From the IMG/VR virus record IMGVR_UViG_3300021591_000018, positions 1 through 64,000 of that record: 64,000 nucleotides of DNA. One strand, written 5' to 3'. Under the pieces are notes generated by a model that was given only the letters and a program-made list of their open reading frames with translations, was not told the DNA's origin and ran no database searches. Below are positions 1,277 through 58,447 of this stretch, piece after piece. Within the stretch, counting starts at the first letter, position 1. The number at the start of each line of letters is the position of its first letter. Made by a program: the position numbers and the translations under genes. This DNA is from a virus.

Positions 1277-2047
1277 ATGTTAGTTGTGAAAGCTCCTGAT
1301 CCAAGAGAGCAGTACAAGAAGACTCCAGCTAAGAGAAGAGTAAGAGAGACAATCGAGGTCGAAGAGATTGAACCCATAGGTATAGGAGATGGACGAGAGA
1401 GAGTCTTCTACCTTCCATCAGGGAAACCAATTCGGGTGTTTGTTAATGGACGAGAAGTCAAGGACGTTGAGATAAGTGAAGGAAAGTTGACCTTCAGAGA
1501 TCCTCCAAGAGGATCCATAGCGGTTCTGTTGAGACGAGAGAGAACTATCCTTCGGTGGATAAGGTACATAAGAAGTAAGGAGACAGAGGAGGGTATCGAA
1601 TCCACCATCATTCGATGGGGAGACTTCTTGGATGAACTCAAGAAGAAACTACGCTATCGACCACTGAGTGAATGCGTCCAATTAGCAGAGGAACTTATCG
1701 GTAAGAAGCTCTACGTCTTGACTAAGGAGAGAGTCATCTACCACATCAGGAGGACGCTCTTTGGAGAGACAATAGCTGCAAGTGGAGTCATGGACACTGT
1801 TGAGAGCCTGGAGGAGGACTTTATCAAACTAGGTCGATGGGGACTAGGATGCCCAAACAATTGTGGAAGATTCTGGTGGTTCGTTCCATACGGAGATGGA
1901 TGGAAGCCAGCTGATCCAGCAGCTTACCTCCCATACACTGATCCTGAGACAGGTGAAGTTCGGAACGGCTACCTCAACTGGCAGGACGATATGAGTTTTA
2001 CCTGTGATCGATGTGGAGCCAAGATCAAGCTCGAGGTGAGTGAGTGA
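1277..2047 (+). CDS. Hypothetical tail-region protein with GIGDG...VFVNG beta motif and C-terminal Cys pairs (Zn ribbon)
   Basis: ORF track 1241-2047; ATG at 1277 is preceded by GGTGAAGG. CPNNC...CDRC motifs. Confidence 0.5.
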   Translation: MLVVKAPDPREQYKKTPAKRRVRETIEVEEIEPIGIGDGRERVFYLPSGKPIRVFVNGREVKDVEISEGKLTFRDPPRGSIAVLLRRERTILRWIRYIRSKETEEGIESTIIRWGDFLDELKKKLRYRPLSECVQLAEELIGKKLYVLTKERVIYHIRRTLFGETIAASGVMDTVESLEEDFIKLGRWGLGCPNNCGRFWWFVPYGDGWKPADPAAYLPYTDPETGEVRNGYLNWQDDMSFTCDRCGAKIKLEVSE

Positions 2048-4293
2048 TGGCAACCGTTACTGCGTATCGGTTGAGGGAGCCCGTTACGAGACTTGTGATT
2101 AGGCCGAGTGGAAAGACAAGGCTATGCCTACCGGCGGACTATGCGAATAATAAACTCTTCAGATGGAACCAAGAAGTTACTGCTTCAGGTTGGAGTGTTC
2201 AGGGTAATCCTTACGCTGATTTCGTCAGATATGGCGTTGGATCAGTTATAATAAATTCCGGCTCTCAAGTGAAATTACATCGCGTTGGTTACACCGTTGT
2301 TTGGGACACCGTTTCTTGGAACGATCTTGTAGGTTTCTCAATCGACACGGTAAATCACATGTTTTCTATTCAATTTATACTCGACAACGATAAGGAGGAG
2401 ACTCTCGACTTCAGCAGCTATACGGAGGGAGCCGACGGGTCGCCGCTGATATACGACGATGATGAGAGTTTCTGGACAGCGATAGGAATAGGGTCGGGAA
2501 CTGTTCAAGTTCCGACACTTAGTGAAGAACTCACAGAAGTTAAAAAAGGAACTAGCTCACTTAAAGTAACTGTAAATACAACAGGAGGTAGTTATGCTGG
2601 CTGGGCTATTTATCATGACTATGCAACATCTCAAGATTGGAGCTCCTATGATTTTCTATGCCTCTATTGGTATGGAGCAAATTCAGGCACAACAATAAGA
2701 ATATATATTCCCGCACCCGATGGAGCAAATCAATTCTATTATGATCTTATCGATAATTGGACAGGGTGGAAGCGACTAGTTATTCCGCTTAGAGCTTTCT
2801 CCACTTATGGTTCTCCAAGCTGGAGTAATGTCACAGCGATAGATATAAGAAGCCAAGCTGACCCCGCCGATGCAACATACTATCTCGATCGCACGCTGGT
2901 CGATGTGGGGCAGTGGGCTGTTGTTGAGATATTCGTTCCAGATGTTTTGAAGAATGATTCATACGGTTTCTCTCTGTATAGCTGGAATGGATCAGAATAT
3001 GCGATCTTCTTGGCGTATAACCCCTATAACACTGACGACATCGGAACAACGGGCTGGCACAATCTCGTGTTCCTCGATGGAACTACTTCTTTAGATATTT
3101 ATCCAGGAGAAGGCTACATGATTCATGGACGAGGAGAAGTCGGTTCGAGAGGCGAAACAATCTCAGGAGTTCGAATGCAGAATGCAAGCTACAGCTCCTA
3201 CTACGGCTGTCGCCGCCGTCTCGGATTCGCTTTAAAATTACCACCCGACGACGGCCAAGACGCCAGCGACTATGGCATCTCACAGTGCAAGTTGAAATTG
3301 GAAGTCTATTACAGTGAAGACGAGAGTCGACGGATCGTCTATGACAGTAGCGGATACGGAAATAACGGTACTATCTACGGTGGCCCGACCTCTGTTGACG
3401 GTCGATTTGGACGTGCACTTTACTTCGATGGCGACGATTGGGTTGATGTTGCCCCAGGTAGTAACATACTGAACCTCCGAGAGAAAGTCACTGTATGCAC
3501 ATGGATAAAGATAAGCTCAACGCCGCCTGGCTATGTGTTCGCTTATGGCTCCGGCTTTTGGCCGCATCTTCAACTTGGCCTTGGGCTCAGTGGTTTGCAA
3601 AACTACACTGAGATCGAAACTGAAACCTCGTTTACGAATCTCTACGGTTCGACCGTTCCGCTGAATCAGTGGACATTCATAGCAGTGACGTATGATGCGT
3701 CCACAGGTGATTTGAAACTTTACAAGGATGGTCAATTTGATGCATCAACTACGCATAGCGGCAAGTTGTGGGAGGCGAATTCCTTCAAAGTTGGTAGTAA
3801 GTACGATGCCACCTTTAACTTCATAGGTTGTGTTGACGAAGTACGAGTCTACAATCGCGTCCTTAGTGAGAATGAGATCAGGCAACTATACGAGGGTGTT
3901 AACATCACCGACGGACTCGTCCTCCACCTGAAGCTAGACGAGGAAATCTACTACGGGTCCGCAACCTATGAATTCGAAGACAGCACTAACCAATACTATG
4001 GACTCCAGAACATTAATGAGCAGTGGCTTGCACTATTCAACCCTGATGACGATGAACTCGAGTTCTACTGCTTCGAGAAGCGTCCGACTTACATCTCCGT
4101 ACGAGCAGATGAGAACGAGATCATACGGGAAGTGATAGTTGACTTCCCGAAGCCTACCATCATCTACAAGGGCAAGGTTACAGGGGTTGACTTTAGCGAA
4201 GACAAAGACGGCAACGGTGTCCCAGACGTGTTCGAGACTTACTTCCCGTACCTCGAGGAGTTCGTCTCTGAGAAAGAGGTGACGGTTGCATGA
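2044..4293 (+). CDS. Virion/tail protein with CBM-like and LamG (concanavalin A-like) domains
   Basis: 749 aa. DSSGYGNNGTIYG...GRFGRALYFDGDD...WTFIAVTYD...LYKDG...FIGCVDEVRVYNRVLS is a recognisable LamG_3 pattern. Confidence 0.75.
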   Translation: MMATVTAYRLREPVTRLVIRPSGKTRLCLPADYANNKLFRWNQEVTASGWSVQGNPYADFVRYGVGSVIINSGSQVKLHRVGYTVVWDTVSWNDLVGFSIDTVNHMFSIQFILDNDKEETLDFSSYTEGADGSPLIYDDDESFWTAIGIGSGTVQVPTLSEELTEVKKGTSSLKVTVNTTGGSYAGWAIYHDYATSQDWSSYDFLCLYWYGANSGTTIRIYIPAPDGANQFYYDLIDNWTGWKRLVIPLRAFSTYGSPSWSNVTAIDIRSQADPADATYYLDRTLVDVGQWAVVEIFVPDVLKNDSYGFSLYSWNGSEYAIFLAYNPYNTDDIGTTGWHNLVFLDGTTSLDIYPGEGYMIHGRGEVGSRGETISGVRMQNASYSSYYGCRRRLGFALKLPPDDGQDASDYGISQCKLKLEVYYSEDESRRIVYDSSGYGNNGTIYGGPTSVDGRFGRALYFDGDDWVDVAPGSNILNLREKVTVCTWIKISSTPPGYVFAYGSGFWPHLQLGLGLSGLQNYTEIETETSFTNLYGSTVPLNQWTFIAVTYDASTGDLKLYKDGQFDASTTHSGKLWEANSFKVGSKYDATFNFIGCVDEVRVYNRVLSENEIRQLYEGVNITDGLVLHLKLDEEIYYGSATYEFEDSTNQYYGLQNINEQWLALFNPDDDELEFYCFEKRPTYISVRADENEIIREVIVDFPKPTIIYKGKVTGVDFSEDKDGNGVPDVFETYFPYLEEFVSEKEVTVA

Positions 4294-7200
4294 CGTGGGA
4301 GATCTACATCGACGGTGAGATCCATTCTGGTTCCATAGTGAAGATAGTCGAGGAGCTCAACAACCACTCAGAAGCGATCATTCGACTCCCACGGTCACCT
4401 GAGAACATTGAACTCGTCCAGAGCGACAGAGACGTAGACATCTACTTCGACGACAAGAAGATCCTCTCTGGTAAACTGATGGCTGCAAAGTTCAAGTATG
4501 ACTACATCGAATGTACGATCTATCCAGAGGCTGAGGACAAGCTTAAGAACAGCATCATAACGGGAACGTACGAAGACGCATCTCCAGAGACAGTCGCACA
4601 AGCGATATGTGATGCTGCAGGACTTACACTCGGATCCGCTCCTTCAACTCCAACTGTGAGTGTACGATTCGACCATGCTGTCTGTTGGGATGCTCTACGC
4701 CACCTCTGTGACGTCATCGATAAGGACTTCTGGTTCGACGGATCGACAGTCTACATAGGAGACAGAGGAACATCAGTCGGAGAAATCGTCCCACAAGGTC
4801 TTTCACGTCGAGCAGTCGATCGAAGTAAGGTTAAGAACAAGGTCATCATCCGAGGAGTGGACAAAGATGGCAATACAATCTACGGTGTAGCTCAGACAGG
4901 TGCTGGAGACAGAGTCATCGTCTTCACAGAGAAGAGAACTATGACTCAAGAAAACTTGAATCAGCTAGCACAGACGAAGCTCAAGGAACTGTCAAAGGAG
5001 GCAACTGGAGTAGCTTTCGATGTTTCACCTGATGTCGGAGTCAGTCTCAATGTCGGTGACACTGTCTACATCAACGCTGAAGAACTCAACCTCGTAGGCA
5101 ACTTCCGTATCTACCGGTTGACGAGAAAGGCAGAGAAGACCATCGTCGAAATTGACCGACCTGAACTTGTACTCGAATCCGTCTTCGAGGACATGCAGAG
5201 ACTCGAAGACCTTGGCATCTACCCGGTAAGTGCTGAGCAGCTTGACAATCCACCTGGACCACCTGCAGCACCAACTGGATTAACTGCTACACCACAGATC
5301 GGAGCCATTCTCCTTAAATGGAATGCTAACACCGAGGCTGACCTCGACCACTATGAAATCTATCGAGACACTTCAAGTCCTGCCTCTACTAAGATCGCTG
5401 AAGTCCACGCTACCTCATACCTTGATGAAGACGTCGAATACGGTGTGACGTACTACTACCGGATCAAGGCAGTCGACAGAGTTGGCAACAAGTCGGACTT
5501 CTCAGCTGAAGTCTCAGCGTCTCCACGTCAAGTCGAGACACCTGACCTTGAGGATCAATCAATTACAACAGATAAAATCGTCCCCGAAGCTGTTACAACC
5601 CCAATTCTTGCTCCCGACGCTGTAACAACCGAAAAGATCCAAGACCAGGCTGTCACTGAGCTTAAGCTTGCGGATCTGGCTGTTTCGACTCTGAAAATCC
5701 AAGACCTAGCTATAACCGAAACGAAAATTGCAGACGACTCGATCTCAACTCCCAAGCTTCAAGCAAATGCAGTGACTGCAGCAAAGATTGCTGCAGGAGC
5801 CGTTACTACTGAGAAACTCGATGCACACGCTGTTACTACGCGAAAACTCTACGTCTATCAGGTTCTCCTCGACAGTCCCGGATTTTCGGCTTCAGGTGGT
5901 GTACTCTCTTGGAATAGTTTTACACTTACCTATCAAGGCGTCGACTATGAGATCTCCTCTGGTAGCACTTCTGACATGTATATCTACTGGAAGGAAGGTG
6001 ATACATTCCTCTCAAGTAGCAATACGAAGCCAGATATCGCATCTGATCCATCCATCCATATGATTGCGGTATTCGACGCTTCAACCAACACTTTCTGGGA
6101 AGTTTGGAAGCCAACGGTAGTTCACGGCGGCATGATCATTACAGAGACAATTAGTACCGAGGAACTGGCTGCAGATGCAGTCACAACAGAGAAGATCCGC
6201 GCCGAAGCAGTCACAACAGCGAAACTGGCAGCTGGAGCCGTAACGTCTGAAAAAATTACTGCCGACTGGATCACAGGTAAGAAATTCCGCACAAGTGGAA
6301 GGGCGACCCCAGCAGCTGGAGTGGAATTTGATGACAACGGTATCCGAGGGTACGGAGATGCGACGACGAAGACATTCGAGATCGAGGCTGCAACTGGTGA
6401 CGTTAAAGTCTACGGTTCACAACACTTCATAGTGGCGGATGAGACTGGAACATCTATCGGTTACCTCGAGCATACAAGATACACGTTTGACTCGACTGAC
6501 TATGACACCGCGAGACTCGTAGCACCTTCACACTCTGCTGCAATTGAGGCATCAGGCTACTACTTACTACTACGACAAGATGGCAATTGGATTATAGGTG
6601 GTGACCCAACCATCCTTCCAGTAAGCGATCTACAAGTGAGGATCGGTGACAATTCGCATCGGCTGAAGGAGATTCATGTTGAAAGCCTTTACGCTGAGAA
6701 CCTCTCTGGGACGATCAATATCCTCAACTCCGATCTCGATGCTAACAGTCACAAGATCTACAACTTGAGTGGGTTAGAGCCAGATGGAACTGGGACACGA
6801 GACATCGGAACTTCTACTCTTCAATGGAAGGACGGTTACTTCGCTGGAACAGTCTACGGTGGATCAGGAGACTTTGGGAGTCTGTTGATTGGTGGGACTG
6901 AGGTGATTACAGGCTCGAGAGTTTTGCAGAATATCGCCTCGATTAACGTAAACCTACTTCCAAGTGATAACGATTTCTTCGATCTCGGCTCGGAGTCTTA
7001 CAAGTGGCACAGGCTGTTCCTTGGCTCTACAGATGTCGGCCTGAATGCGGGTGGAAGCATAGTGATCGGCGATGACACGAGCAATCTGAGGATAGATGAC
7101 AACGAAATACAACAATACGGGAATTCCCTTTATATTAATATCGATTCCCATGTAGACACGATTTTTGGATGTAACGTAAGACCTCATTCTGATAACGCCT

Positions 7201-9257
7201 ACGACCTCGGCTCCTCCTCATATCAGTGGCGTAACCTATACTTGGGCAATCAGCTAATCATAGGCGGAGATGTAGTCCTCTATCGTGGAGGAACCAATAT
7301 CCTTGAAACCGACGATCAGTTCCGGATCAGGTATGCTGGGTCTTGGGATCAACTAGTCTTCGATACGACCTCTGCAGACTCACGAATCGCAAAGGTTAAG
7401 GTAGGAAGTAGCAATAACTGGCTTTGGTTGGACGCCTACGCTGATACAGGCTACCTCGCAGTAGTCGGTTTCTTCCGCGGTGTTGTCGATGGTAAGCCAA
7501 GAATCCGATTCTTAAAGGGTGATGGTCAGCCCGATGGTGGAATTGAAGTTTTTCCACGGGAAGGCAAAATAGAGTTCGATGGTGACACTAATCTCTACCG
7601 CTCAGCCGCAGACGTGTTGAAGACGGATGACAACTTCGACTGTTTGGCCTTGAGGATAGGTGGAACCGAGGTCATAACTTCGGGGAGGGTGTTGCAGAAC
7701 ATAGCTTCCGTAGCTCAGAGTTTGCTTCCCGATACGGATAATACGAGGGATTTGGGGAGTTCGAGTTACAGGTGGAAGAGAGGATATTTTTATGAATACC
7801 TCTGGGTCTATGAGGTCCTCCGTCCTGGCATAGTGGAGAGGTTTGGTTCTTGGGGTAACGAACCAACGATACCAAGGCTCAACAACGTGTTGGCTCTAGC
7901 AGATCAAAGATTTACCGTAACGGTTTCTGCGACGCCAACTAGTGGAGGCGTCGCAAATATGTTCGACCACTCTTTCGAATCTAGCACTAGGTGGGATACC
8001 ACCGTAACATACCCCGTAACGATAGAAATCGACTTGGGGGGCACATACCACTATTTCACAGCTGTAGGTGTCTACTTCGTTTTCGGTCGATATCCGGGGT
8101 ATGTTAAGATAGAGATCTACAACACCAACACCTCGGCTTGGGAAACGTTAAAGGAGGTTTCTGGAAATACGAGTAGCCACGTCTACTGGGTCGGAGGCCA
8201 AAGCTATGTTGGGAAGATAAGGATAACACTAGACGAGCCAACAGCTAACCCCCATAACGAAATCGCGGTCGCACTTATTTACGCTGAGTCATCGGCTCTA
8301 ATGAAGGTAAAGGGTGGGGGTCATCCTCACTTTCCTGACCTTATGATAAACGGGTATGAAGTAATCACGAGCGGAAGGATTCTCCAGAATATCGCTTCAG
8401 TAGCACAAAGTTTGCTCCCGAATTCGGATAATGCCTATGATCTCGGCTCGTCGAGCTATAGGTGGAGAAATGTCTACCTCCGTAGCAGACTTTACATTTC
8501 TGGTACGGGAAACTTGGAGTGGTCTCTACATTCGAATGGAGAACACCTAGAAATCCGAGAGCCAGAAGACGGCGACAAAATCTGGTTTAAAATGGAGGAC
8601 GGAGTGGGAATACATCTGAACCCGGATGGGACTCAGGTTCTATCGATATTAACTGGTCAAATAACCCCGTATAAGAGCATAGTTCCGTCTTCCGATAATG
8701 CTTTAGACCTCGGCTCTTCAAGCTACAGGTGGCGCAACGGCTACTTCTCCGGTAACGTCAACCTCTCCGACACCTCACTCCTGAAGTTCGGAACGGATGT
8801 CAACCTTTACCGTGAGTCGGCTGATGTACTTAAGACGGAGGATAACTTCAACTGCCTCTCTCTTAGAATTCGTGGCACGGAGGTTATCAACCAAAACAGG
8901 CGACTTCGTAACATCGCATCTGTCGAAGGACCTTTGCTCCCAAGCTCGTCAGGCGCATATAACCTTGGTTCAAGCGTTTACAAGTGGGACGAGGTACACG
9001 CCAATGATGTTTATGGCACCGTCCGCTATGCCGATATGCACTTCCTGGACTTAAGATGTAAGCTATGTGGAAAGTCCTTTAAGGTGGGTGATCGACTTGA
9101 ACTCATCGTAACTGGCTTCGAGGAGGATCCAGTCACGGGAACCGAGATGCTTGCGGTTCCCGTTCACGTTGGATGTGCAGTTAAGAATAGTCTTTCCAAG
9201 AGAGTAAAGTCCTTCCTAGGGTGGTTGATATGCCGTATAGCTGGACGGAAGACATAA
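4290..9257 (+). CDS. Baseplate hub/central tail fibre protein: hub-like N-terminus, FN3 domain, trimeric fibre repeats, C-terminal Cys/His domain
   Basis: 1655 aa. FN3 (PAAPTGLTA...LKWNAN...YYYRIKAVDRVGNKS); AVTTEKI-type repeats; repeated DLGSSSYRW modules; C-terminal CKLC...HVGC. Confidence 0.8.
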   Translation: MTWEIYIDGEIHSGSIVKIVEELNNHSEAIIRLPRSPENIELVQSDRDVDIYFDDKKILSGKLMAAKFKYDYIECTIYPEAEDKLKNSIITGTYEDASPETVAQAICDAAGLTLGSAPSTPTVSVRFDHAVCWDALRHLCDVIDKDFWFDGSTVYIGDRGTSVGEIVPQGLSRRAVDRSKVKNKVIIRGVDKDGNTIYGVAQTGAGDRVIVFTEKRTMTQENLNQLAQTKLKELSKEATGVAFDVSPDVGVSLNVGDTVYINAEELNLVGNFRIYRLTRKAEKTIVEIDRPELVLESVFEDMQRLEDLGIYPVSAEQLDNPPGPPAAPTGLTATPQIGAILLKWNANTEADLDHYEIYRDTSSPASTKIAEVHATSYLDEDVEYGVTYYYRIKAVDRVGNKSDFSAEVSASPRQVETPDLEDQSITTDKIVPEAVTTPILAPDAVTTEKIQDQAVTELKLADLAVSTLKIQDLAITETKIADDSISTPKLQANAVTAAKIAAGAVTTEKLDAHAVTTRKLYVYQVLLDSPGFSASGGVLSWNSFTLTYQGVDYEISSGSTSDMYIYWKEGDTFLSSSNTKPDIASDPSIHMIAVFDASTNTFWEVWKPTVVHGGMIITETISTEELAADAVTTEKIRAEAVTTAKLAAGAVTSEKITADWITGKKFRTSGRATPAAGVEFDDNGIRGYGDATTKTFEIEAATGDVKVYGSQHFIVADETGTSIGYLEHTRYTFDSTDYDTARLVAPSHSAAIEASGYYLLLRQDGNWIIGGDPTILPVSDLQVRIGDNSHRLKEIHVESLYAENLSGTINILNSDLDANSHKIYNLSGLEPDGTGTRDIGTSTLQWKDGYFAGTVYGGSGDFGSLLIGGTEVITGSRVLQNIASINVNLLPSDNDFFDLGSESYKWHRLFLGSTDVGLNAGGSIVIGDDTSNLRIDDNEIQQYGNSLYINIDSHVDTIFGCNVRPHSDNAYDLGSSSYQWRNLYLGNQLIIGGDVVLYRGGTNILETDDQFRIRYAGSWDQLVFDTTSADSRIAKVKVGSSNNWLWLDAYADTGYLAVVGFFRGVVDGKPRIRFLKGDGQPDGGIEVFPREGKIEFDGDTNLYRSAADVLKTDDNFDCLALRIGGTEVITSGRVLQNIASVAQSLLPDTDNTRDLGSSSYRWKRGYFYEYLWVYEVLRPGIVERFGSWGNEPTIPRLNNVLALADQRFTVTVSATPTSGGVANMFDHSFESSTRWDTTVTYPVTIEIDLGGTYHYFTAVGVYFVFGRYPGYVKIEIYNTNTSAWETLKEVSGNTSSHVYWVGGQSYVGKIRITLDEPTANPHNEIAVALIYAESSALMKVKGGGHPHFPDLMINGYEVITSGRILQNIASVAQSLLPNSDNAYDLGSSSYRWRNVYLRSRLYISGTGNLEWSLHSNGEHLEIREPEDGDKIWFKMEDGVGIHLNPDGTQVLSILTGQITPYKSIVPSSDNALDLGSSSYRWRNGYFSGNVNLSDTSLLKFGTDVNLYRESADVLKTEDNFNCLSLRIRGTEVINQNRRLRNIASVEGPLLPSSSGAYNLGSSVYKWDEVHANDVYGTVRYADMHFLDLRCKLCGKSFKVGDRLELIVTGFEEDPVTGTEMLAVPVHVGCAVKNSLSKRVKSFLGWLICRIAGRKT
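5553..6260 (+). repeat. Decapeptide (A/S)(V/I)TxxK(I/L)xxx fibre repeats in two blocks
   Basis: SITTDKIVPE AVTTPILAPD AVTTEKIQDQ AVTELKLADL... and later AVTTEKIRAE AVTTAKLAAG AVTSEKI. Confidence 0.8.
6780..8990 (+). repeat. Repeated fibre modules (IGGTEVITSGRVLQNIAS / LLPxxDNxYDLGSSSYRW / NLYRxxADVLKTDDNF)
   Basis: About seven D(L/I)GSS-type...W copies and four EVI...(L/R)xNIAS copies are visible in the translation. Confidence 0.8.
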
Positions 9258-9904
9258 GTCCAGGTGCATCGATTGACGCTGCAGACATCAACGAGATGAA
9301 GCAGGCGTTAGACGATATCTACAGTGATCACTCACTTACGTACCCTGGATGCGCCTCGGGTGCCGGGTGGGTAGCCTTGCCTGTTAATCCGGGTGATCCG
9401 ATCAGTTCAACGCAGTTCTATGAACTCCGAGATCGTACCGACTACGCTTGGGAGGAAGTTTGCTGCACCGGCCACTGTGAGGTTGCGTTTTCACCCGAGG
9501 ATACTGCTGAATACACGATGGATGATCCCGGTTTCTACGTCACTGTAAACGACTCGCAAAATGCACTTGAGGACTCAGCTGCCCGCTCAGCAGAAGACTA
9601 CGGTGAACGCGTAAGTGAGGACGTTGGATATGATGTTTCGGTTGACTCCGGTGATGACAACGGAGCATACTCTGGTCATCGGTATAGCCAGAACATTGGT
9701 GCGGATTCAGGTGTCGATAACAATGACCATGGTACATATGACTCCAATGAGCATACTACCTTCAGGAGCACTTACCATGCTGATTACGATGTCGGAGAGA
9801 ATACAGGCTACCGTAGCACTGATCACGACTCAGTCAACTCACCTCACAACTCGAGCGTCTGTAGCTCCTACAAGGCGTATCACGACGTCCCGTTAGGTGT
9901 TTAG
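9230..9904 (+). CDS. Acidic tetrapeptide-repeat protein A (two leader-like motifs plus 36 four-residue units); candidate rSAM substrate
   Basis: ATG at 9230 gives MPYSWTEDISPGASIDAADINEM, matching the paralog start. Ungapped 4-aa register from CTGH to DVPL. Confidence 0.75.
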   Translation: MPYSWTEDISPGASIDAADINEMKQALDDIYSDHSLTYPGCASGAGWVALPVNPGDPISSTQFYELRDRTDYAWEEVCCTGHCEVAFSPEDTAEYTMDDPGFYVTVNDSQNALEDSAARSAEDYGERVSEDVGYDVSVDSGDDNGAYSGHRYSQNIGADSGVDNNDHGTYDSNEHTTFRSTYHADYDVGENTGYRSTDHDSVNSPHNSSVCSSYKAYHDVPLGV

Positions 9905-9905
9905 A

Positions 9906-10427
9906 ATGCCGCTTTCGTGGACACAGGACATCAGTTCCGGTGCATCTATTGACTCAGCTGACGTACAGGAAATCCGGGACAACATCGACGCTGTGATCGA
10001 CTGCAGTCCAGAGTGTAGTGCAGATTACATCTCAGTGGAGTCCGGATTCGATATTGGCGTCTACACTACCGAGGACTACAATGCATATACCACAGCATAC
10101 ACGAATGTAAAGTCCGGAGAGGACATCTCGGTGTTGACGGGATATGATGCCGATGTATATGTGGGCGAAAATACCTCCGAAGACAGTGGGAAAAACTCTT
10201 CAGTCGATACAGGTGACTTCGTGTCTGTTAAAACCAATTACGACTCCGGAGAAAATGTTGGTGATGATATCGGCTACGACTCCACCTACAAAGCGGGAGT
10301 GGACGGGGAGGATTACGGTGACTACAACTCATCCTACGATGGAGCCGTCGACTCCAGCGATTATGGGGATCACAACTCACCGTACAATATCACGGTCAAG
10401 TCTTCCCACAATTCAGGGGTGACATGA
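9906..10427 (+). CDS. Acidic tetrapeptide-repeat protein B (one leader-like motif plus 35 four-residue units); candidate rSAM substrate
   Basis: MPLSWTQDISSGASIDSADVQEIRDNID is paralogous to protein A. 4-aa register from CSPE to NSGV. Confidence 0.75.
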   Translation: MPLSWTQDISSGASIDSADVQEIRDNIDAVIDCSPECSADYISVESGFDIGVYTTEDYNAYTTAYTNVKSGEDISVLTGYDADVYVGENTSEDSGKNSSVDTGDFVSVKTNYDSGENVGDDIGYDSTYKAGVDGEDYGDYNSSYDGAVDSSDYGDHNSPYNITVKSSHNSGVT

Positions 10428-11701
10428 TGGAAGCGGCAGAGCTACTTACAACGGGCTGGTGTCCATTGAACTGTACGTATTGCTACATTCCGAAGAGCCG
10501 GATGATGATCCATCTTCACTCACGCATTCGAGGGTATCTTCAGTCCGGTGAATTCATCGAGGATCTTAAGCGTTTCTACGGTGGCAAGCTCCACTTCCTC
10601 GGGTTCTGGGGTACTGAGCCGCTCTTGACTCTCTCGGACATCAAGCCACATCTACCCGAGATAGTAGAGGCGTTTCCAAACCTCGAAGCAATCAGCTTCA
10701 GCACGTCGTTGCTGTACCGTCCACTGGAGATAGTCGACTTCGCTGCAGCTATGCCGAGGAAAATTCAGCTTCGAGTCCAGATAAGCGTTGACGGTCCAGC
10801 TTGGATTACAGACCGCAACCGACGTGTAGGAGCTGCTGAAGAGATTCCACGGAACTTCGAAACAGTATTGAGGGAACTCAATGCGACGTCGACGTGCCCA
10901 GTCGAGTTCCGGTGGAAGGTGACGCATTCGATCGAGAACATCCGAGGCTTCACGCCGGAAAGGGTGAGAGGGTTCATCGGTTACTTCAAAAGGCTAAACG
11001 CAACTTTCGACAGAGTTAACCGGAGACGAGATGTCACTCTGCGACGTGGGAGCTTCTGTCCAACCATAGTGGTTCCAGGGAAGTACACCGCAAATGATGG
11101 CAGGGCATTTGCCAGATATCTACGTCTCTTTCACGCTGAAAACTTCGACACTAGTTATACTTATCGACTCCGGAGGATCATAGACTTGTTTCCTGACATT
11201 GCGAAGACTCGGATGTTCACATGCAGTGGCGGCGACAGCAATGCCGGGGTCGGATTCGGGAAGTTGCACATCTGCCACAGAACGTTTTACTACGATTGCC
11301 CGGAGTACGTAGAGAGCATTGTGACTCAAGAGCGATACAAGAACTGGGATGTCAGTCACTTTGAGGAAGGAACTGTAGACTGGGTCGCAAGGTGGTTTAT
11401 CACTGATGATGTCCCTCGTTTCCGCTATGTTATGAGAGGTTACCACGACTTCTGGAGATTCAAGATCAGTTATACTGAGACTATGGTTCAGTTGCTTGCG
11501 AAAGTCGGCGAAGCGAATCCGAGGTATCTTTCTGACCCTGGATTTAGGCAACTCTTCGCCATCTTCGAAAACGTTGCGCTGAGTTGCCCGATGGAGAATC
11601 TTCTCAACACTGGGTCTATACACCTCCAGACTTTGAGCCTTATCCGCATGTTTGCGAATGGAGCTTTCGAGGAGTTGGTGGAGCGATGCAAGAGAAGATG
11701 A
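10424..11701 (+). CDS. Radical SAM enzyme 1 with reduced SPASM/Twitch-like C-terminus
   Basis: CPLNCTYC (CxxxCxxC), WGTEPLL, ISVDG, then TCSGG...ICHR and a distal CPMEN. Confidence 0.85.
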   Translation: MMEAAELLTTGWCPLNCTYCYIPKSRMMIHLHSRIRGYLQSGEFIEDLKRFYGGKLHFLGFWGTEPLLTLSDIKPHLPEIVEAFPNLEAISFSTSLLYRPLEIVDFAAAMPRKIQLRVQISVDGPAWITDRNRRVGAAEEIPRNFETVLRELNATSTCPVEFRWKVTHSIENIRGFTPERVRGFIGYFKRLNATFDRVNRRRDVTLRRGSFCPTIVVPGKYTANDGRAFARYLRLFHAENFDTSYTYRLRRIIDLFPDIAKTRMFTCSGGDSNAGVGFGKLHICHRTFYYDCPEYVESIVTQERYKNWDVSHFEEGTVDWVARWFITDDVPRFRYVMRGYHDFWRFKISYTETMVQLLAKVGEANPRYLSDPGFRQLFAIFENVALSCPMENLLNTGSIHLQTLSLIRMFANGAFEELVERCKRR

Positions 11702-12912
11702 TCGAGTACATCCTCGAGAGGACATTCTACAAGACCTGGAGAAACGGCGAAGGGTTATTCAGTAAGCTCGAGCTCTTCGTGAATCCGTATTGTAACCTCC
11801 GATGTAAGTACTGTTATCTGCAACGTTACAGTGAAGGGCTGTACCCACCAGAAGCGAGGAAACCACCGAGAGAGATACTGTCCAATGGACTGAGAGTCCT
11901 TCGATGGTTGAAAGCGAATGACTTCCGCCCTGAGATCGAGATTTTCAGTGGAGAGCCCTTGATTCAGCCAGCCTGCATCGAACTGATGGTTCGAGCTTCT
12001 GAAGTTGCGAAACAGGTAGTTGTGCCAACGAACTACACCTTCCTGCTCTCCGAGAGGCTTACGCGTTTGGTGGAGTCTACACTTCGCCCGAACATCGTGC
12101 TCTCCGCAAGCTTCGACGGTAAGTACTGCGAGCACGCAAGGCCATTCAAACACGGACCCGAACTCCGGGACGATGTCTACTACGACAAATGTTTCCAGTT
12201 CAACGCAAAACATCGCTTTGGTTTTCACCCGATGGTCGCTCCGCAGAACATCGAAAACTGGACTGAGAACTTCCTCTGGTTCCAGGAGAACTTTAAGAAA
12301 TTCGGAATCCCATGGACGAATTTGTACTTGCTCGAAGTCCGAAACCCTGAATGGACAAAGTCTCAGCTTCGCCACCTCGATGAGTTCCTCCGGTTTCTTG
12401 TACGTTGGAGTTGGAAGAAGTGTCAGTCCAGTAACAGGCTGTTCCGTGAGTTCCTTTTCAAAGGACGCGGCTTCAATATTCTCAGTAGTCCCTTCGTTAC
12501 CATTGGACGTGGGATTGGGTGCTCAATTCAATCCACGCTGACAATTCGCCTAGGTGATCTTGCAATAGTCCCATGTCATCGAACTGCATATAAGCCTTTC
12601 ATCCTTGGGTACTTCAGAGATGGGATCGAAATCACAAATCCGGAGCTCTTCGTCGCAGTGTACAGTTTCGATCGCAGATCGCTACCTTATTGCGAGCAAT
12701 GTGATATTCGTGAACTCTGTAGTGGAGGATGTCTAGGAGCACAGCTGGAAAGCCTCGGAGATATGTTCACTCCACATCCGAATGTCTGTTTACTTGAGCA
12801 TATCAAGATTAATGCAATTCTTTCAGAACTTAATGAGATAGGAGTTCTCTCGTACCTAACTAAGTTTATTCGAACCGAGAAGCAAAAAGCGATCGAGGGG
12901 TGGATAAAGTGA
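11686..12912 (+). CDS. Radical SAM/SPASM enzyme 2
   Basis: CNLRCKYC, FSGEP, ASFDG; full SPASM GCSI...PCHR...CEQCDIRELCSGGC...VC. Likely start is ATG 11686 (after GGTGGAG) or 11698 (ATGA overlap). Confidence 0.9.
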   Translation: MQEKMIEYILERTFYKTWRNGEGLFSKLELFVNPYCNLRCKYCYLQRYSEGLYPPEARKPPREILSNGLRVLRWLKANDFRPEIEIFSGEPLIQPACIELMVRASEVAKQVVVPTNYTFLLSERLTRLVESTLRPNIVLSASFDGKYCEHARPFKHGPELRDDVYYDKCFQFNAKHRFGFHPMVAPQNIENWTENFLWFQENFKKFGIPWTNLYLLEVRNPEWTKSQLRHLDEFLRFLVRWSWKKCQSSNRLFREFLFKGRGFNILSSPFVTIGRGIGCSIQSTLTIRLGDLAIVPCHRTAYKPFILGYFRDGIEITNPELFVAVYSFDRRSLPYCEQCDIRELCSGGCLGAQLESLGDMFTPHPNVCLLEHIKINAILSELNEIGVLSYLTKFIRTEKQKAIEGWIK

Positions 12913-13403
12913 GTTTTGAAGAGACGAAAGCAGTTCTCGAACGCGAACTTCGTTCTGAGCGATTGAAAGTCTATTTTGGCAAGAGAGTGCTGGACGACAT
13001 CCATCGACTTGTCTCTCTGATGCTGCGCGACGTTACAAACCTGATGGCTGACAAGCAGGTCTCAGTAGATGATAAAACGATCGAAGACCTTAACAGAGTT
13101 TTGGACGCGATGATCGACGTCGTTTCAATCATACCTCTGGATGAGAGGGTCACAGACTTTTGTCAGAATTTCGCTCGTCTAGCATATAACTGGAACCAAA
13201 ATCTACGACGAGATCGCTCAATCGAGAGAAAAACAAGGGTTCTCGATAGACTGCTACGTCAGCACTTGACGATCGTCGAAGCAACGAATGTCTTAAGGAG
13301 GCTTACTCGGCGGCTTGAGAGGTTCCTCGACTACTCTCCACCTGCCTTTCGTCTTGCACGACACTTTCTTGAGAGCGTCTTTGAAGAGCAGCAACCTCCC
13401 TGA
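12900..13403 (+). CDS. Alpha-helical hypothetical protein closing the rSAM operon
   Basis: 167 aa ORF overlapping the rSAM2 stop (GTGA at 12909-12912); last + strand gene before the convergent arm. Confidence 0.6.
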   Translation: MDKVSFEETKAVLERELRSERLKVYFGKRVLDDIHRLVSLMLRDVTNLMADKQVSVDDKTIEDLNRVLDAMIDVVSIIPLDERVTDFCQNFARLAYNWNQNLRRDRSIERKTRVLDRLLRQHLTIVEATNVLRRLTRRLERFLDYSPPAFRLARHFLESVFEEQQPP

Positions 13404-13509
13404 TCAATTCGTCTAGTGCCTCACCGACATCTACTGCCATCGCCATGAGCATCTGCCATCGACGCTGAAGTCGAGCTGCCTTCTGAATCAGACTCTGAAG
13501 CTCACTCAT
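13303..13509 (-). CDS. Small coiled-coil hypothetical protein
   Basis: ORF with upstream GGAGG; helical heptad-like sequence. Confidence 0.5.
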   Translation of the reverse strand: MSELQSLIQKAARLQRRWQMLMAMAVDVGEALDELIREVAALQRRSQESVVQDERQVESSRGTSQAAE

Positions 13510-13669
13510 TGCTCTTCCTCCTTAGAAGGTACCCTACAGCTGCTCCGAGAGAGAAATTTATCAAATTTGTATTCCTAGTGTAAAAAGCGTACGCTACACT
13601 TGCTAAGATAACGACAGCAGCAACGACATTCGCTATCGTTGTCTTCGAGATAAGTTCACGGAAGCTCAT
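13502..13669 (-). CDS. Small two-helix membrane protein (holin-like)
   Basis: Not in track. MSFRELISKTTIANVVAAVVILASVAYAFYTRNTNLINFSLGAAVGYLLRRKSNE* fills the gap with overlapping start/stop. Confidence 0.55.
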   Translation of the reverse strand: MSFRELISKTTIANVVAAVVILASVAYAFYTRNTNLINFSLGAAVGYLLRRKSNE

Positions 13670-13962
13670 GGTCTCACCTTCCGTTTGCGTAACAGTTCGT
13701 CGAGTGTCTTCAGCTTCTGCTTCCTAGCTTCACGCTCTTGTTTGCGTTGCTGATCGGCCGCTAGCAACTTTATTCTCTCCTTGACTCTTGCCTTCGCCCA
13801 ATCGTCAAATGTTCCGTCGTCCAGCATGGACCTGAGGTCGTCTTCTTTTACGCTGACAGCAAAGCCGTCCCGTCCACCTTTCTCTTCGAAGAGTAGTGTC
13901 ACAGTGCCCTCTCCGACTTCATGTATTCGAATCTTGTACTCGTAGTCGTTGAACTCACTCAT
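13666..13962 (-). CDS. Hypothetical protein
   Basis: 98 aa ORF coupled to its neighbours. Confidence 0.6.
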   Translation of the reverse strand: MSEFNDYEYKIRIHEVGEGTVTLLFEEKGGRDGFAVSVKEDDLRSMLDDGTFDDWAKARVKERIKLLAADQQRKQEREARKQKLKTLDELLRKRKVRP

Positions 13963-14488
13963 CTATTCTCACCTCCAACACCTCTAACCGAGAAGAAAGA
14001 AGGTCAGCAAAGTGGATGATAGCCGAGAGTAAGTCATTCGGATAGACGGATGACCTTGACCATCCTCCCATGTGACTTAAGATTGCTCGTGCAATGTAAG
14101 TTGGCAGAACGTAGCCGGTTTCCTCTTGGAACATCTGAAGTCCACTTACCTCGTGACTCGCCCAACGGAATGGGTTGTCCTCGAACTTACCGTCAACTTC
14201 GACGTAGTCCTGAAGTTTACCAACGTCATGGAGTAGAGCTGCCACAATGACGTTCTCCAAATCTATGTAACCTACGATATGTGCGATCTTGACTGCCAGT
14301 TCAACGACGTTCAACGTATGGTCAAGTAATCCTCCACGATAGTTACAGTGGTGATACAGACTCGCTGGATAGTTCTCGAATTCCCTACGATGTCGATCGA
14401 AGAACTTTTCTAGGGCTTCTCGGAGACGTCTGTTCCGTACCTTTTGAATCCATCGCCGCAACTCGTTCCAACGGTTCAACTGTCGCAC
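13955..14488 (-). CDS. HD-domain phosphohydrolase (YhaM-like HD)
   Basis: PASLYHH...GGLLDHTLNV...ALLHDVGK...SHMG...IIHFADLLSS. Confidence 0.85.
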   Translation of the reverse strand: MRQLNRWNELRRWIQKVRNRRLREALEKFFDRHRREFENYPASLYHHCNYRGGLLDHTLNVVELAVKIAHIVGYIDLENVIVAALLHDVGKLQDYVEVDGKFEDNPFRWASHEVSGLQMFQEETGYVLPTYIARAILSHMGGWSRSSVYPNDLLSAIIHFADLLSSRLEVLEVRIDE

Positions 14489-55977: not shown

Positions 55978-56003
55978 CTCACTATCCACCCTTAACTAAA
56001 AAT

Positions 56004-56282
56004 TTAAGGTGAGTTTGGCTGTGGTATTGGTCTCAGTCTACCGTTCATCAACGCATACGCGTACCTCGTTATGACTTTGATTCCAGTGACAGGGCACTCC
56101 ATGTACCAGATGTCGACGCCATCCTTCGTCTCAACTTTGACCTTCCATGCTAGATCGTTTGGTTGACATTTCCGACATCGCAGACATCGTATCCTCATGG
56201 CTGCCATGGTCCTATTCGTTACGACTGTCTGATTATTCGGACTTAAGTCGTTCCAATTCATCTTAATCACCATCATCTTCAC
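56004..56282 (-). CDS. Small Cys-rich early protein (normal-composition paralog)
   Basis: CLRCRKC...WKVKVE..DGVDIWYMEC. Confidence 0.7.
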   Translation of the reverse strand: MKMMVIKMNWNDLSPNNQTVVTNRTMAAMRIRCLRCRKCQPNDLAWKVKVETKDGVDIWYMECPVTGIKVITRYAYALMNGRLRPIPQPNSP

Positions 56283-56290
56283 TTAAAAAT

Positions 56291-56698
56291 TTAGGAGGTA
56301 ACGTATCCAAACTGTTCCACTGAGTTACTGTAAACAACGTATACATTAACCCATGTTAGCTTGTGATAATCGAATGCATCTGCAACCTTCTTTACTGCAT
56401 ATATTTCAGCTCTACTCTCTACAGCCATCTTTCGGCAATAGCCTGGTAGGTCGTCAACGCACTCGGTTTCAATTCTTTGAAAGGTAGCTACCGCAAATCC
56501 TGCGTCTTCAAGCACCTTTCGTTGAGCTTCGAAACACTGATAATGTCTGTCGAGCTCTTTTACTCTCGCTTCAAGGTCTTTCTTCGTTATTACAACTCTC
56601 AGATAGTGCGGGTTGATGCATCTCCAGATTAAGGACTTAATTTTGTCCAAAGCACGAATTAGTTCGTAATTGATTTCAAACTTCATCTTAATCACCAT
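56291..56698 (-). CDS. Hypothetical early protein
   Basis: 135 aa ORF following a cassette repeat. Confidence 0.65.
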   Translation of the reverse strand: MVIKMKFEINYELIRALDKIKSLIWRCINPHYLRVVITKKDLEARVKELDRHYQCFEAQRKVLEDAGFAVATFQRIETECVDDLPGYCRKMAVESRAEIYAVKKVADAFDYHKLTWVNVYVVYSNSVEQFGYVTS

Positions 56699-56728
56699 TA
56701 TCCACCCTTACTCAAAATAAAAAACAAA

Positions 56729-56998
56729 TCAAATCCAACCTCTTCCTCTATTCCTCATCAAACCTCTCAATCTTCCACTAATCAAATTATACACTCTCAC
56801 CTTCCTATCTTCACACTCCATACACCACACATCCACTCCTTCTACCACCTCTACTTTCATTCTCCATTTCAACACATTACTTCCCTTACATCTCCCACAA
56901 CTCAAACATATCCCTCTACATACTCTCAAAACATCTCTTCCTACAACTAAATCAAACCCATCCTCACTCTTCCTAACCTCATTACCAAACCAACTCAT
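56729..56998 (-). CDS. C-free early gene, Cys-rich paralog of 56004-56282
   Basis: CLSCGRC...WRMKVEVVEGVDVWCMEC; no A/P/T/Q/H residues. Confidence 0.75.
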   Translation of the reverse strand: MSWFGNEVRKSEDGFDLVVGRDVLRVCRGICLSCGRCKGSNVLKWRMKVEVVEGVDVWCMECEDRKVRVYNLISGRLRGLMRNRGRGWI

Positions 56999-57035
56999 AT
57001 AATCACCATTATCCTCCCTTCACTAAAAAATTTTT

Positions 57036-57311
57036 TCAAAACATACCTAACTCACACATTCTATAAAACCACTCCCAACTCCTAAACCAACTCCAACACC
57101 CATTTCTCAACCTTACTTTCAAAATCCTACCACTATACAAATCTACAATAACCTTCTCACAATATCCTTTCCAACCTACCACTCTTAATCCATCACATAC
57201 CTTCTTCCCAAACCTATTAAACTCACACTTCCTACAAATCTCCTCTAATCTCTCCAAACCTAATCTACTTTCAACCCTAACCTTCATCATCCAACTCTCC
57301 ATCTTTAACAC
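57036..57311 (-). CDS. C-free early gene
   Basis: 91 aa, CRKC...C...C; no A/P/T/Q/H. Confidence 0.65.
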   Translation of the reverse strand: MLKMESWMMKVRVESRLGLERLEEICRKCEFNRFGKKVCDGLRVVGWKGYCEKVIVDLYSGRILKVRLRNGCWSWFRSWEWFYRMCELGMF

Positions 57312-57535
57312 CTCACTCTTAACCCTTTAACCCAATTTATCAACTCACCTACCTCCTCACTATTCAAACCTTCAATCTCAACCATATTTCTACTCCAATC
57401 ATAACTAAACCCACACCTATACTTCCTCTCACCTTCCTCTACCCACAAACCAACCTCCTCTAACATTTCCCTCCTCAAATCCCAAATTCTCACAATATAC
57501 AATCCATTCAACCTCATAACATTAACAACTACCAC
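57305..57535 (-). CDS. C-free early gene
   Basis: 76 aa with GGTGAT SD; no A/P/T/Q/H. Confidence 0.65.
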   Translation of the reverse strand: MVVVNVMRLNGLYIVRIWDLRREMLEEVGLWVEEGERKYRCGFSYDWSRNMVEIEGLNSEEVGELINWVKGLRVRC

Positions 57536-57579
57536 CTTTAATCACCACTATTCACCCTTTCTTAAAAAAACAAACAAAC

Positions 57580-57771
57580 CTAAATAACCCTTACACCCCT
57601 ATACTCACACTCAATACCCCACAACTCACCACCTTTCTTACCTTTCCTAACCACCACCTTCCACATCCCACCTTTACAATCTTCATACCTACTACAATTC
57701 TTACAAATACCCCTTAAACAACCCAAAAAATTCTTTTCAACTCTTATAACCTTAACAAACCTATCATACAT
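57580..57771 (-). CDS. C-free early gene, Cys-rich paralog
   Basis: RGICKNC...C...WKVVV...LWGIEC...VRV. Confidence 0.7.
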   Translation of the reverse strand: MYDRFVKVIRVEKNFLGCLRGICKNCSRYEDCKGGMWKVVVRKGKKGGELWGIECEYRGVRVI

Positions 57772-57985
57772 CTATATCACCATTCTCTTCCCTTTACAAA
57801 AATCACCTTTACAATATCTATCAATTCTTTCTTTCGGTCTCTTCCCCACGTGTCCCCGTGAAATTGGTTAGACGAACTGAAAACGGAAACTCAAACCGCA
57901 CGTACGACCTAAGAACCCGACAGTTAGCGGACATTGACAGTCGGTCAACACACATAAATATCAGTAAACAGTCAATATCTACAGC

Positions 57986-58447
57986 TTGGACTGTAAAGTC
58001 TGTCAGTTGCCGGATGCCCCGGAGATCGTAAGACGTATCAAAGCCAACGAAATCTCAATAGCCGAAGGAGCGAAGCTACTCGGTGTTAGTTACCGAGAAC
58101 TCTGGTTGCACCTTAAGAATTGTGTGGTCGACAAGCCACGCGAAACTTCAGTTGATACACTCCAACTACTCGAGGAATTGCTGCGCATCCTACGACAGAA
58201 GCTGCTTGAGCTCGACAGAATGGAAGTCTCAACAGCCAACATTTCCGCTCTTGCTAAAGTCGCCGACAGTCTACGGAAGACTTGCATGGACATCGAGCGT
58301 CTAACAGGTAAATTAAGAGCGGCACCGCTTATACAGCTGCAGAAGATCACCATCCACTACGAGAACCTTCTACAGATCATCTCAACGGAACTTTGTCCTG
58401 AATGTCGGCGTAAAGTCCTGAAGAAGCTCGAGGCGATGACAGTATGA
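57986..58447 (+). CDS. Putative terminase small subunit
   Basis: CKVC...HTH...HLKNC and coiled coil; ATGA-coupled to TerL. Confidence 0.65.
   Translation: MDCKVCQLPDAPEIVRRIKANEISIAEGAKLLGVSYRELWLHLKNCVVDKPRETSVDTLQLLEELLRILRQKLLELDRMEVSTANISALAKVADSLRKTCMDIERLTGKLRAAPLIQLQKITIHYENLLQIISTELCPECRRKVLKKLEAMTV

Follow-up and report, generated by a model that had tools for sequence, protein, structure and literature searches.

Introduction

Triceptide enzymes (XyeB/GrrM/AmcB-type) recognise a short repeated motif and work on its third residue, at the beta-carbon. QhpD is reportedly a precedent for cross-linking a small protein without a hydrophobic core. The CXXX-repeat system (TIGR04114/TIGR04115; PF27846) is, to our knowledge, uncharacterised. 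In the HXS defence system, the small protein HxsD binds the radical S-adenosylmethionine (SAM) enzyme HxsC, and these two act with HxsB to mature the repeat protein HxsA (Nat Commun 2026; PMC13128918). For radical-SAM genes carried by viruses, a role under discussion is that of auxiliary metabolic genes in the synthesis of haem or chlorophyll (PMC13452462). Here we describe a locus in the first 64,000 nucleotides (the window) of the 76.7-kb IMG/VR record IMGVR_UViG_3300021591_000018, apparently from an archaeal tailed virus. Two adjacent genes, A and B, encode proteins with a strict four-residue register, and they lie between a tail-fibre gene and two radical-SAM genes. Because such proteins are always encoded beside two radical-SAM enzymes, we suggest that they are probably enzymatically matured fibre-tip proteins.

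Results

A and B have an indel-free four-residue register

Repeat protein A (224 amino acids; 9230..9904, plus strand) has a long leader and represents what we call the a type, and repeat protein B (173 amino acids; 9906..10427, plus strand) has a short leader and represents the b type. Both are open reading frames (ORFs); A has the homologues P0002 and P0003 as well as profile relatives, and B matches the family profile A3. A reading of the window from its sequence only (the sequence-only reading) had parsed the cores of these proteins into 36 and 35 tetrapeptides without indels. Translation from the boundary Cys, which marks the junction of leader and core, confirmed this. The core of A (9464..9901, plus strand) consists of the boundary Cys and 36 tetrads with GV left over, and the core of B (10002..10424, plus strand) of 35 tetrads with T left over. 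Both begin CxxxC, as had been noticed, with one more Cys ahead in A (CCTGHC). The exclusion of G, A, S, T, V, I, and P from position 1, the central claim of the sequence-only reading, is true of every complete tetrad in both proteins; small first letters occur only in the trailing partial tetrads. Position 1 is D13 N6 R5 H4 C3 Y3 F1 K1 in A and D12 Y7 N7 K4 C2 E1 L1 F1 in B.

The comparison with shuffled registers that had been proposed as a check gave a very significant periodicity. The mutual information between residue and position modulo 4 had z=13.5 for A and z=17.2 for B (2000 shuffles), and there was no signal at periods of 3, 5, 7, 9, or 11 in either protein. The position-1 exclusion was reached by none of 200,000 shuffles, even when the best of the four registers was taken (hypergeometric P = 7e-12 for A and 5e-14 for B). 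Tandem Repeats Finder found no DNA-level tandem repeat in 9200-10450, and the register is therefore hidden from repeat finders.

It had also been proposed that small residues dominate positions 2 to 4. This holds for positions 2 and 3 but not for position 4, which has a rule of its own: it holds Y, V, H, D, N, E, A, Q, or K, and G, S, T, and P make up only 5.8%. The general form of a tetrad is [D/N/Y/C/H/K/L..]-[S/T/G/A]-[T/G/S/A]-[Y/V/H/D/N/E..]. Units led by Cys are the first two of A, the first two of B, and one late unit of A. Many tetrads with N at position 1 and S or T at position 3, in 9464-10424 and throughout the family described below, match the N-x-S/T glycosylation sequon. Core glycosylation is possible as an additional layer, and some related loci carry predicted glycosyltransferases. 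By eye, one of them (L004) has the gene cassette followed by glycosyltransferase-like genes and an ORF resembling a B12-binding radical-SAM enzyme, and another (L104) has a glycosyltransferase-like ORF between two radical-SAM genes.

The position rules extend to a large unnamed family

A word-based search yielded two relatives, P0002 and P0003. A profile search of 1.84 billion representatives yielded 1163 relatives at E<=1e-3, of which 295 also passed E<=1e-10. With few exceptions, the relatives are 105 to 465 amino acids long and have the domain beginning at residue 1. The family comprises more than 1000 clusters at 50% identity. Neither A nor B has a Pfam, NCBIfam, or PHROG match, and none of 149 family representatives consistently matches any NCBIfam or Pfam family. 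A and B thus belong to a large, unnamed family of proteins of tailed viruses, A as its long-leader and B as its short-leader paralogue.

For an unbiased test of the rules, we anchored the register of 144 family proteins on the boundary Cys alone and read it to the C terminus without indels. Position 1 was wholly free of small residues to the C terminus in 88 of the 144. The share of small residues was 6.8% at position 1, compared with 76% at position 2 and 80% at position 3, and the units that break the rule concentrate near the C-terminal ends. Cys occurred 281 times at position 1 and 17, 17, and 23 times at positions 2, 3, and 4. It fills about 8% of position 1 family-wide, and this confinement bears out the proposal that Cys is equivalent to the other position-1 residues. 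In the tetrad after a Cys, position 1 is enriched for N and Q and depleted of D and E.

We also compiled 511 tetrads from 14 proteins of related loci. Position 1 had no G, A, or P and just four S, T, V, or I, among them a single Ser. D, N, Y, C, H, L, K, Q, R, E, F, and W are allowed at position 1. The register is constant along every core examined, with sizes from 13 to about 80 tetrads across the family. Within this fixed register the cores are hypervariable, and orthologues differ by whole tetrads (A has 36 and P0002 has 33, with conserved ends), which agrees with the diversity remarked on in the sequence-only reading.

Paired a and b cores are matched in length

Related loci encode an a-type and a b-type protein, and the lengths of the two cores in one locus are closely correlated (r=0.985, Spearman 0.97, permutation 1 in 100,000; 11 pairs with cores of 53 to 330 amino acids). 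The median difference is 4 amino acids. The sequences of paired cores are far apart: ungapped identity was 0.19 to 0.30 in five pairs, mostly about 20%, and 0.39 in the highly repetitive pair of locus L006. Identity between a and b within a locus is at the same level as between loci, and therefore gene conversion does not explain the length match. Cores that are matched in length at only about 20% identity suggest that the a and b chains probably pair in register.

The repeat proteins are linked to two radical-SAM genes and a helical partner

A and B, the sole copies of their family in the genome, belong to a tightly overlapping row of genes on the plus strand: a baseplate-like gene, a fibre gene, A, B, rSAM1, rSAM2, and a gene for a small helical protein that we call the helical partner. 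The start of rSAM1 (10424..11701, plus strand) overlaps the stop of B; its product is a radical-SAM enzyme of a virus-typical family (Pfam Radical_SAM, 31.3 bits). rSAM2 (11686..12912, plus strand; start codon checked) encodes a radical-SAM/SPASM enzyme with the motif CNLRCKYC and the full C-terminal set of SPASM Cys residues. The helical partner (12900..13403, plus strand) has 167 amino acids, the motifs YNWNxN and PPAF, and no family match.

Starting from rSAM2, we found that the loci of its close relatives (L001, L002, L004, L006, and L007) all carry the helical partner together with repeat proteins of both the a and the b type. rSAM1 is present in L001, L002, L004, and L006, and the contig of L007 begins at rSAM2. 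Every related locus has one or two copies of the helical partner, each directly 3' of a radical-SAM gene, and the cassette usually adjoins fibre genes. To avoid circularity, we sampled in reverse from the repeat-protein side with a back-translated DNA motif of the leader. Ten of its 15 matches were true family loci. Radical-SAM genes were present in all eight that could be evaluated; the other two lay at contig ends. In 185,579 prokaryote genomes, the motif gave 27 chance matches and no family member. Therefore, at the limited sensitivity of a motif scan, the family seems to be confined to viral and metagenomic DNA.

The cassette is also present in a phage that reads TGA as Trp (L088, L092, L093, and L103; IMG/VR 3300035537_000062, 3300036941_000100, and 3300035053_000090). 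There, TGA codons specify W5 and W47, which are invariant in the leader, and six in-frame TGA codons lie in the gene for the rSAM2 homologue.

The gene directly 5' of A, overlapping its start, encodes a 1655-amino-acid tail-fibre protein (4290..9257, plus strand) that matches PHROG tail-fibre families (phrog_892, E 3e-26, and others) and contains Pfam fn3 and End_tail_spike fragments. Upstream of it is the baseplate-like gene (2044-4293, plus strand). The C terminus of the fibre protein (window 9060-9257) has a CxxC ... HxGC motif (LRCKLCGKSF ... VHVGC) resembling a small zinc-binding knuckle just 5' of A. We considered a programmed frameshift that would fuse the fibre gene to A and rejected it: the frame of A opens just 9 nucleotides before the ATG, after a TAG, and no slippery site was seen. 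By eye, neighbouring fibre proteins in L004 have long G-x-x collagen-like SGYSG repeats; these and the genes noted above that follow the cassette are in L004:2-4011 and 7789-14222. Elsewhere in the window, 56001-58000 has an anomalous composition (GC content 0.397 and GC skew -0.61, compared with about 0.46 and -0.1 elsewhere), and Tandem Repeats Finder detected no tandem repeat there.

rSAM1 and rSAM2 resemble peptide maturases at a distance

rSAM1 has CPLNCTYC (CxxxCxxC) and three further conserved Cys residues. Its N terminus matches the peptide maturases PapB, AmcB, and GrrM weakly, and also YhhB and XyeB. It has no sequence relative in the PDB, and most of the clusters closest to it in the ESM Atlas are viral radical-SAM clusters (score 0.98). 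For rSAM2, the best NCBIfam models were PapB (67.3 bits; cut-off 340), QhpD, and the SCIFF maturase (39.6 bits; cut-off 425), all far below their cut-offs. Its SPASM domain scored above the cut-off (TIGR04085, 30.2 bits; cut-off 27), and the Cys residues of the SPASM region are invariant relative to L001. The nearest PDB sequence is CteB (5wgg, E 2e-6), with an alignment that starts at CteB residue 99. The N-terminal segment of CteB is its peptide-recognition domain (RiPP recognition element [RRE], where RiPP is a peptide made by ribosomes and modified after translation). rSAM2 aligned only from residue 99 and therefore has no RRE of its own.

A folded leader, a nearly invariant Cys, and a variable core

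The family proteins have a three-part architecture: at the N terminus a folded helical docking domain (the leader), next a Cys that is nearly invariant, and then the tetrads, in a hypervariable series. The family consensus of the leader is MxFxW, NExKTNxD, W..PV, and ELRxAxDYADDxNxC, in which M1, W5, E22, W47, and D71 are nearly invariant, and 146 of 147 sequences have the boundary Cys. The leader of A (residues 1-78; 9230..9463, plus strand) is predicted by AlphaFold2 to be a helical hairpin and carries the motifs MxFxW, NExKTNxD, and ELRxAxDYA. With a 149-sequence alignment, helices were predicted at residues 17-33 and 60-82, with predicted local distance difference test scores (pLDDT) of 91 to 98. 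The leader of B (residues 1-32; 9906..10001, plus strand) is predicted to be a single helix with the same MxLSW...EIRDNID motif. A fold search with VIA-align over the whole PDB gave only generic helical matches (Z<=5.6). Foldseek gave nothing at E<=0.001 in the PDB, and its only matches in BFVD were rudivirus proteins without a known function, at E>0.1.

Even with 149 sequences, the pLDDT of the core of A stayed at about 50. Poor confidence had been suggested as a sign that modification is needed. It was indeed poor, as it would be if the core needed modification, were an obligate oligomer, or were disordered.

Longer proteins that carry the leader were missed by the word-based search; the exhaustive profile search gave P0075, P0118, and P0148. 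In P0075 (960 amino acids), the leader and a short tetrad core are at the C terminus, after four DUF5000/F5_F8-type-C lectin-like domains. It is a natural fusion to a probable receptor-binding protein. P0118 and P0148 have a Hint/Vint-like autoprocessing domain after the tetrad core (SCFTG and NCFSG; the Pfam matches are weak and below cut-off). In L001 (5070-5903), a Peptidase_S74 intramolecular-chaperone domain is split: its first approximately 12 residues (SDIRLKKDIVYI) end L001a, profile positions 15-56 are in an 85-amino-acid downstream ORF, and an entire b-type gene lies between the two parts.

Discussion

A proposal for maturation at position 1

Sequence and gene context predict that these proteins are matured by radical-SAM enzymes. 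We consider it likely that A, B, and their relatives are radical-SAM-matured, length-matched fibre-tip proteins. The best overall explanation would add that position 1 is presented to the radical and that the two chains pair in register, and to this composite we give a probability of roughly 0.5. The fibre context supports it: A is directly 3' of a tail-fibre gene, P0075 has a lectin-like fusion, and relatives have S74 and Hint-like modules.

In the mechanism that we propose, the helical partner and the enzymes would dock on the leader, with rSAM2 having no RRE of its own. The enzymes would then travel along the core, with the unbranched beta-methylene of each position-1 residue facing the 5'-deoxyadenosyl radical. 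An SPASM enzyme like CteB, PapB, or QhpD might link a position-1 Cys, chiefly the boundary Cys, to the next position-1 residue in a C-x3-N/D geometry, and rSAM1 would perform a second reaction. Matured a and b chains would pair in register, and the product would be a fibre tip of beta type on the virion, thin and with little hydrophobic character; the variable side chains of positions 4, 1, and 2 would be its binding surface.

A tentative part of this proposal is that the radical acts at position 1 in the majority of units, and we put it at somewhat less than an even chance. The complete linkage to two radical-SAM genes in the loci that could be evaluated speaks for it. The allowed residues all have an unbranched beta-methylene with a gamma substituent, which fits C-beta radical chemistry. 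The excluded residues would also make sense under such chemistry: Gly lacks a beta-carbon, the radical formed on Ala would be a primary one, Ser would undergo oxidation, Thr, Val, and Ile are branched, and Pro is a ring. We rejected the idea of a turn or positive-phi (alpha-L) position, which would be rich in Gly: position 1 of the 511 tetrads from related loci has no Gly, no Ala, and one Ser. Epimerization is a weakened candidate, for known radical-SAM epimerases accept Val, Ile, and Thr. Cyclophane formation of the triceptide type was rejected as a general chemistry: the repeats of L006a and L006b lack aromatic residues and yet both enzymes are kept. No aromatic residue is at a fixed offset from position 1, and aromatic residues are almost never found at position 3, two residues ahead of the following position 1. 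In its strongest form, the proposal would have every tetrad processed, with a modification or cross-link at the position-1 beta-carbon in each of 35 to 80 units. The protein-sized, periodically modified a/b tip would then be the first radical-matured structural or receptor-binding protein of a virion. Many tailed viruses would have it, the apparently archaeal one described here and those with recoded TGA among them. We regard this form as doubtful.

Several observations weigh against maturation at position 1 with in-register pairing. Most tetrads lack Cys, and so thioether chemistry cannot account for the whole ladder of position-1 residues; the b-type cores L001b and L006b have no Cys at the start. 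There is no constant cross-link partner inside the tetrad. Complementarity of residue classes between a and b, looked for at positions 1 and 4 with offsets of -3 to +3, was not found, in five pairs only. The low pLDDT of the core would be equally expected for an obligate oligomer. At position 4, hydrophobic and polar residues alternate from tetrad to tetrad family-wide, a weak 8-residue alternation that points to a fold-based origin of the period. Finally, L006a scores above the Pfam cut-offs for DUF2345 (52.8 bits; cut-off 30.7) and Gp5_trimer_C (41.2 bits; cut-off 30.9) and aligns to the gp5/VgrG spike beta-helix 9gtr (E 3.6e-4).

Alternative explanations

The last two observations are the basis of the alternative that survives best, a structural ladder. 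The tetrad, or octad, would be the repeat of a fibrous beta fold, either a gp5/VgrG-like triple-stranded beta-helix or a very narrow solenoid. Packing or ion binding would constrain position 1, and the radical-SAM enzymes would touch the region of the boundary Cys or another substrate only. Besides the alternation at position 4 and the gp5 matches of L006a, a period of 8 beyond that of 4 is strong in L006a (z=27) and L006b (z=18) and weak in B (z=3.0), L002b, and L007a. Two of the 149 family representatives match the gp5 models weakly. Solenoid super-periods of 12, 16, and 20 gave no signal except 16 as a multiple of 8. The length match of a and b cores would be expected, and S74 chaperone and Hint-like modules, which follow some cores, are typical of fibres. 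However, the period of 8 is not seen in A (z=0.5), A and B match neither Gp5_trimer_C nor DUF2345 at E<=5, and the 9gtr helix that aligns to L006a breaks the position-1 rule. A turn position would favour Gly and allow Ala and Ser, all of which the 511 tetrads virtually lack at position 1. No tetrad position is consistently hydrophobic, and AlphaFold gives no solenoid even with 149 sequences. The constant linkage of two radical-SAM enzymes and a partner would be left unexplained. On balance, we think a purely structural origin rather unlikely, although position 1 may be both a radical target and part of a structural ladder.

A second alternative is that these are free RiPP natural products, in which the leader is cleaved and the modified core is released as a toxin or signal. 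The leader-core layout, the RiPP-type maturases, and the short members with cores of about 50 amino acids (L004a and L004b) would suit this. However, no protease or exporter was seen in the loci examined, the genes have a constant place within tail-fibre modules, and cores are as long as 330 amino acids. The leader is a confidently folded domain of 80 amino acids; in P0075 it is internal, after the lectin-like domains; and the a and b cores are length matched. Release as a free product is therefore improbable.

The sequence-only reading had taken the cores for a CXXX-type repeat in which Cys is replaced. The confinement of Cys to position 1 and the CxxxC start would agree with membership in that system, and an ESM Atlas lead pointed to a viral cluster with PF27846 (score 0.82, under the 0.9 reliability mark). 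The family models do not bear this out. The target model TIGR04114 found nothing in the genome at E<=10 and matched none of the 149 representatives. The maturase model TIGR04115 (cut-off 350 bits) also found nothing in the genome and is absent from the NCBIfam matches of rSAM1 and rSAM2; the best maturase model for rSAM2 is that of PapB. True membership is thus very improbable.

Least probable of all is that the cores are unmodified, disordered acidic tails that bind metals or glycans beside radical-SAM genes that are unrelated auxiliary metabolic genes: a composition rich in D, N, S, T, G, and Y, weak EF-hand and lanmodulin matches of L006a, and low core pLDDT would fit, but disorder accounts neither for a register kept through 35 to 80 units without indels nor for exclusion rules at two positions, and the radical-SAM linkage held in eight of eight loci.

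Implications of the proposed radical-SAM maturation at a fibre tip

If the cores are matured by both radical-SAM enzymes, then tailed viruses would apply RiPP-type radical chemistry to their own fibre-tip proteins. A literature search found no published description of radical-SAM maturation of such proteins. The strict tetrad code predicts modification either at every fourth residue or at Cys-anchored sites only, and the core would offer a compact, length-tunable scaffold with a hypervariable surface. The annotation of viromes is also concerned: some viral radical-SAM genes that are now discussed as auxiliary metabolic genes could encode fibre-maturation enzymes instead. The family, with more than 1000 clusters, has no model in the Pfam, NCBIfam, and PHROG libraries that we searched.

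Comparison with known systems

The gp5/VgrG triple-stranded beta-helix shares with these cores a fibrous viral setting and, in its 8-residue unit, small residues and Val. It differs in that the basic period here is 4, no inward position is consistently hydrophobic, and the aligned spike lacks the position-1 rule. The likeness to triceptide systems, which make three-residue cyclophanes, is in the weak N-terminal matches of rSAM1 and in beta-carbon chemistry on a short motif that is repeated.

The ranthipeptide and thioether maturases (PapB, which acts on C-x3-D, SCIFF/CteB, and QhpD) are the nearest to rSAM2 by sequence, and rSAM2 has a full SPASM domain as they do. The boundary Cys is followed four residues on by N, Y, or D, comparable to the C-x3-D of PapB. 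In contrast to ranthipeptides, there are one to a few Cys per core of 100 to 300 amino acids here, rSAM2 has no RRE of its own, and its scores are far under the family cut-offs. The CXXX-repeat system shares a four-residue register, Cys as the first residue, and an adjoining radical-SAM/SPASM gene. However, in about 92% of the units here D, N, Y, H, K, or another residue stands in place of Cys, and there is a second radical-SAM enzyme and a helical partner.

The HXS system resembles this locus in architecture only: both have two radical-SAM enzymes, a small partner, and a protein-sized substrate with short tandem motifs. In this respect HXS is a precedent for the maturation proposed here. At the level of sequence, the HxsB model TIGR03978 scored 26.8 and 15.1 bits against a cut-off of 370, the HxsC model TIGR03977 matched only the QueE region, and the HxsD model TIGR03976 had no match. 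HXS is bacterial and defensive, and its substrate has five H-x-S units and a peptidoglycan-binding domain, whereas the system described here is viral, belongs to a tail module, and carries 13 to 80 tetrads behind a different leader.

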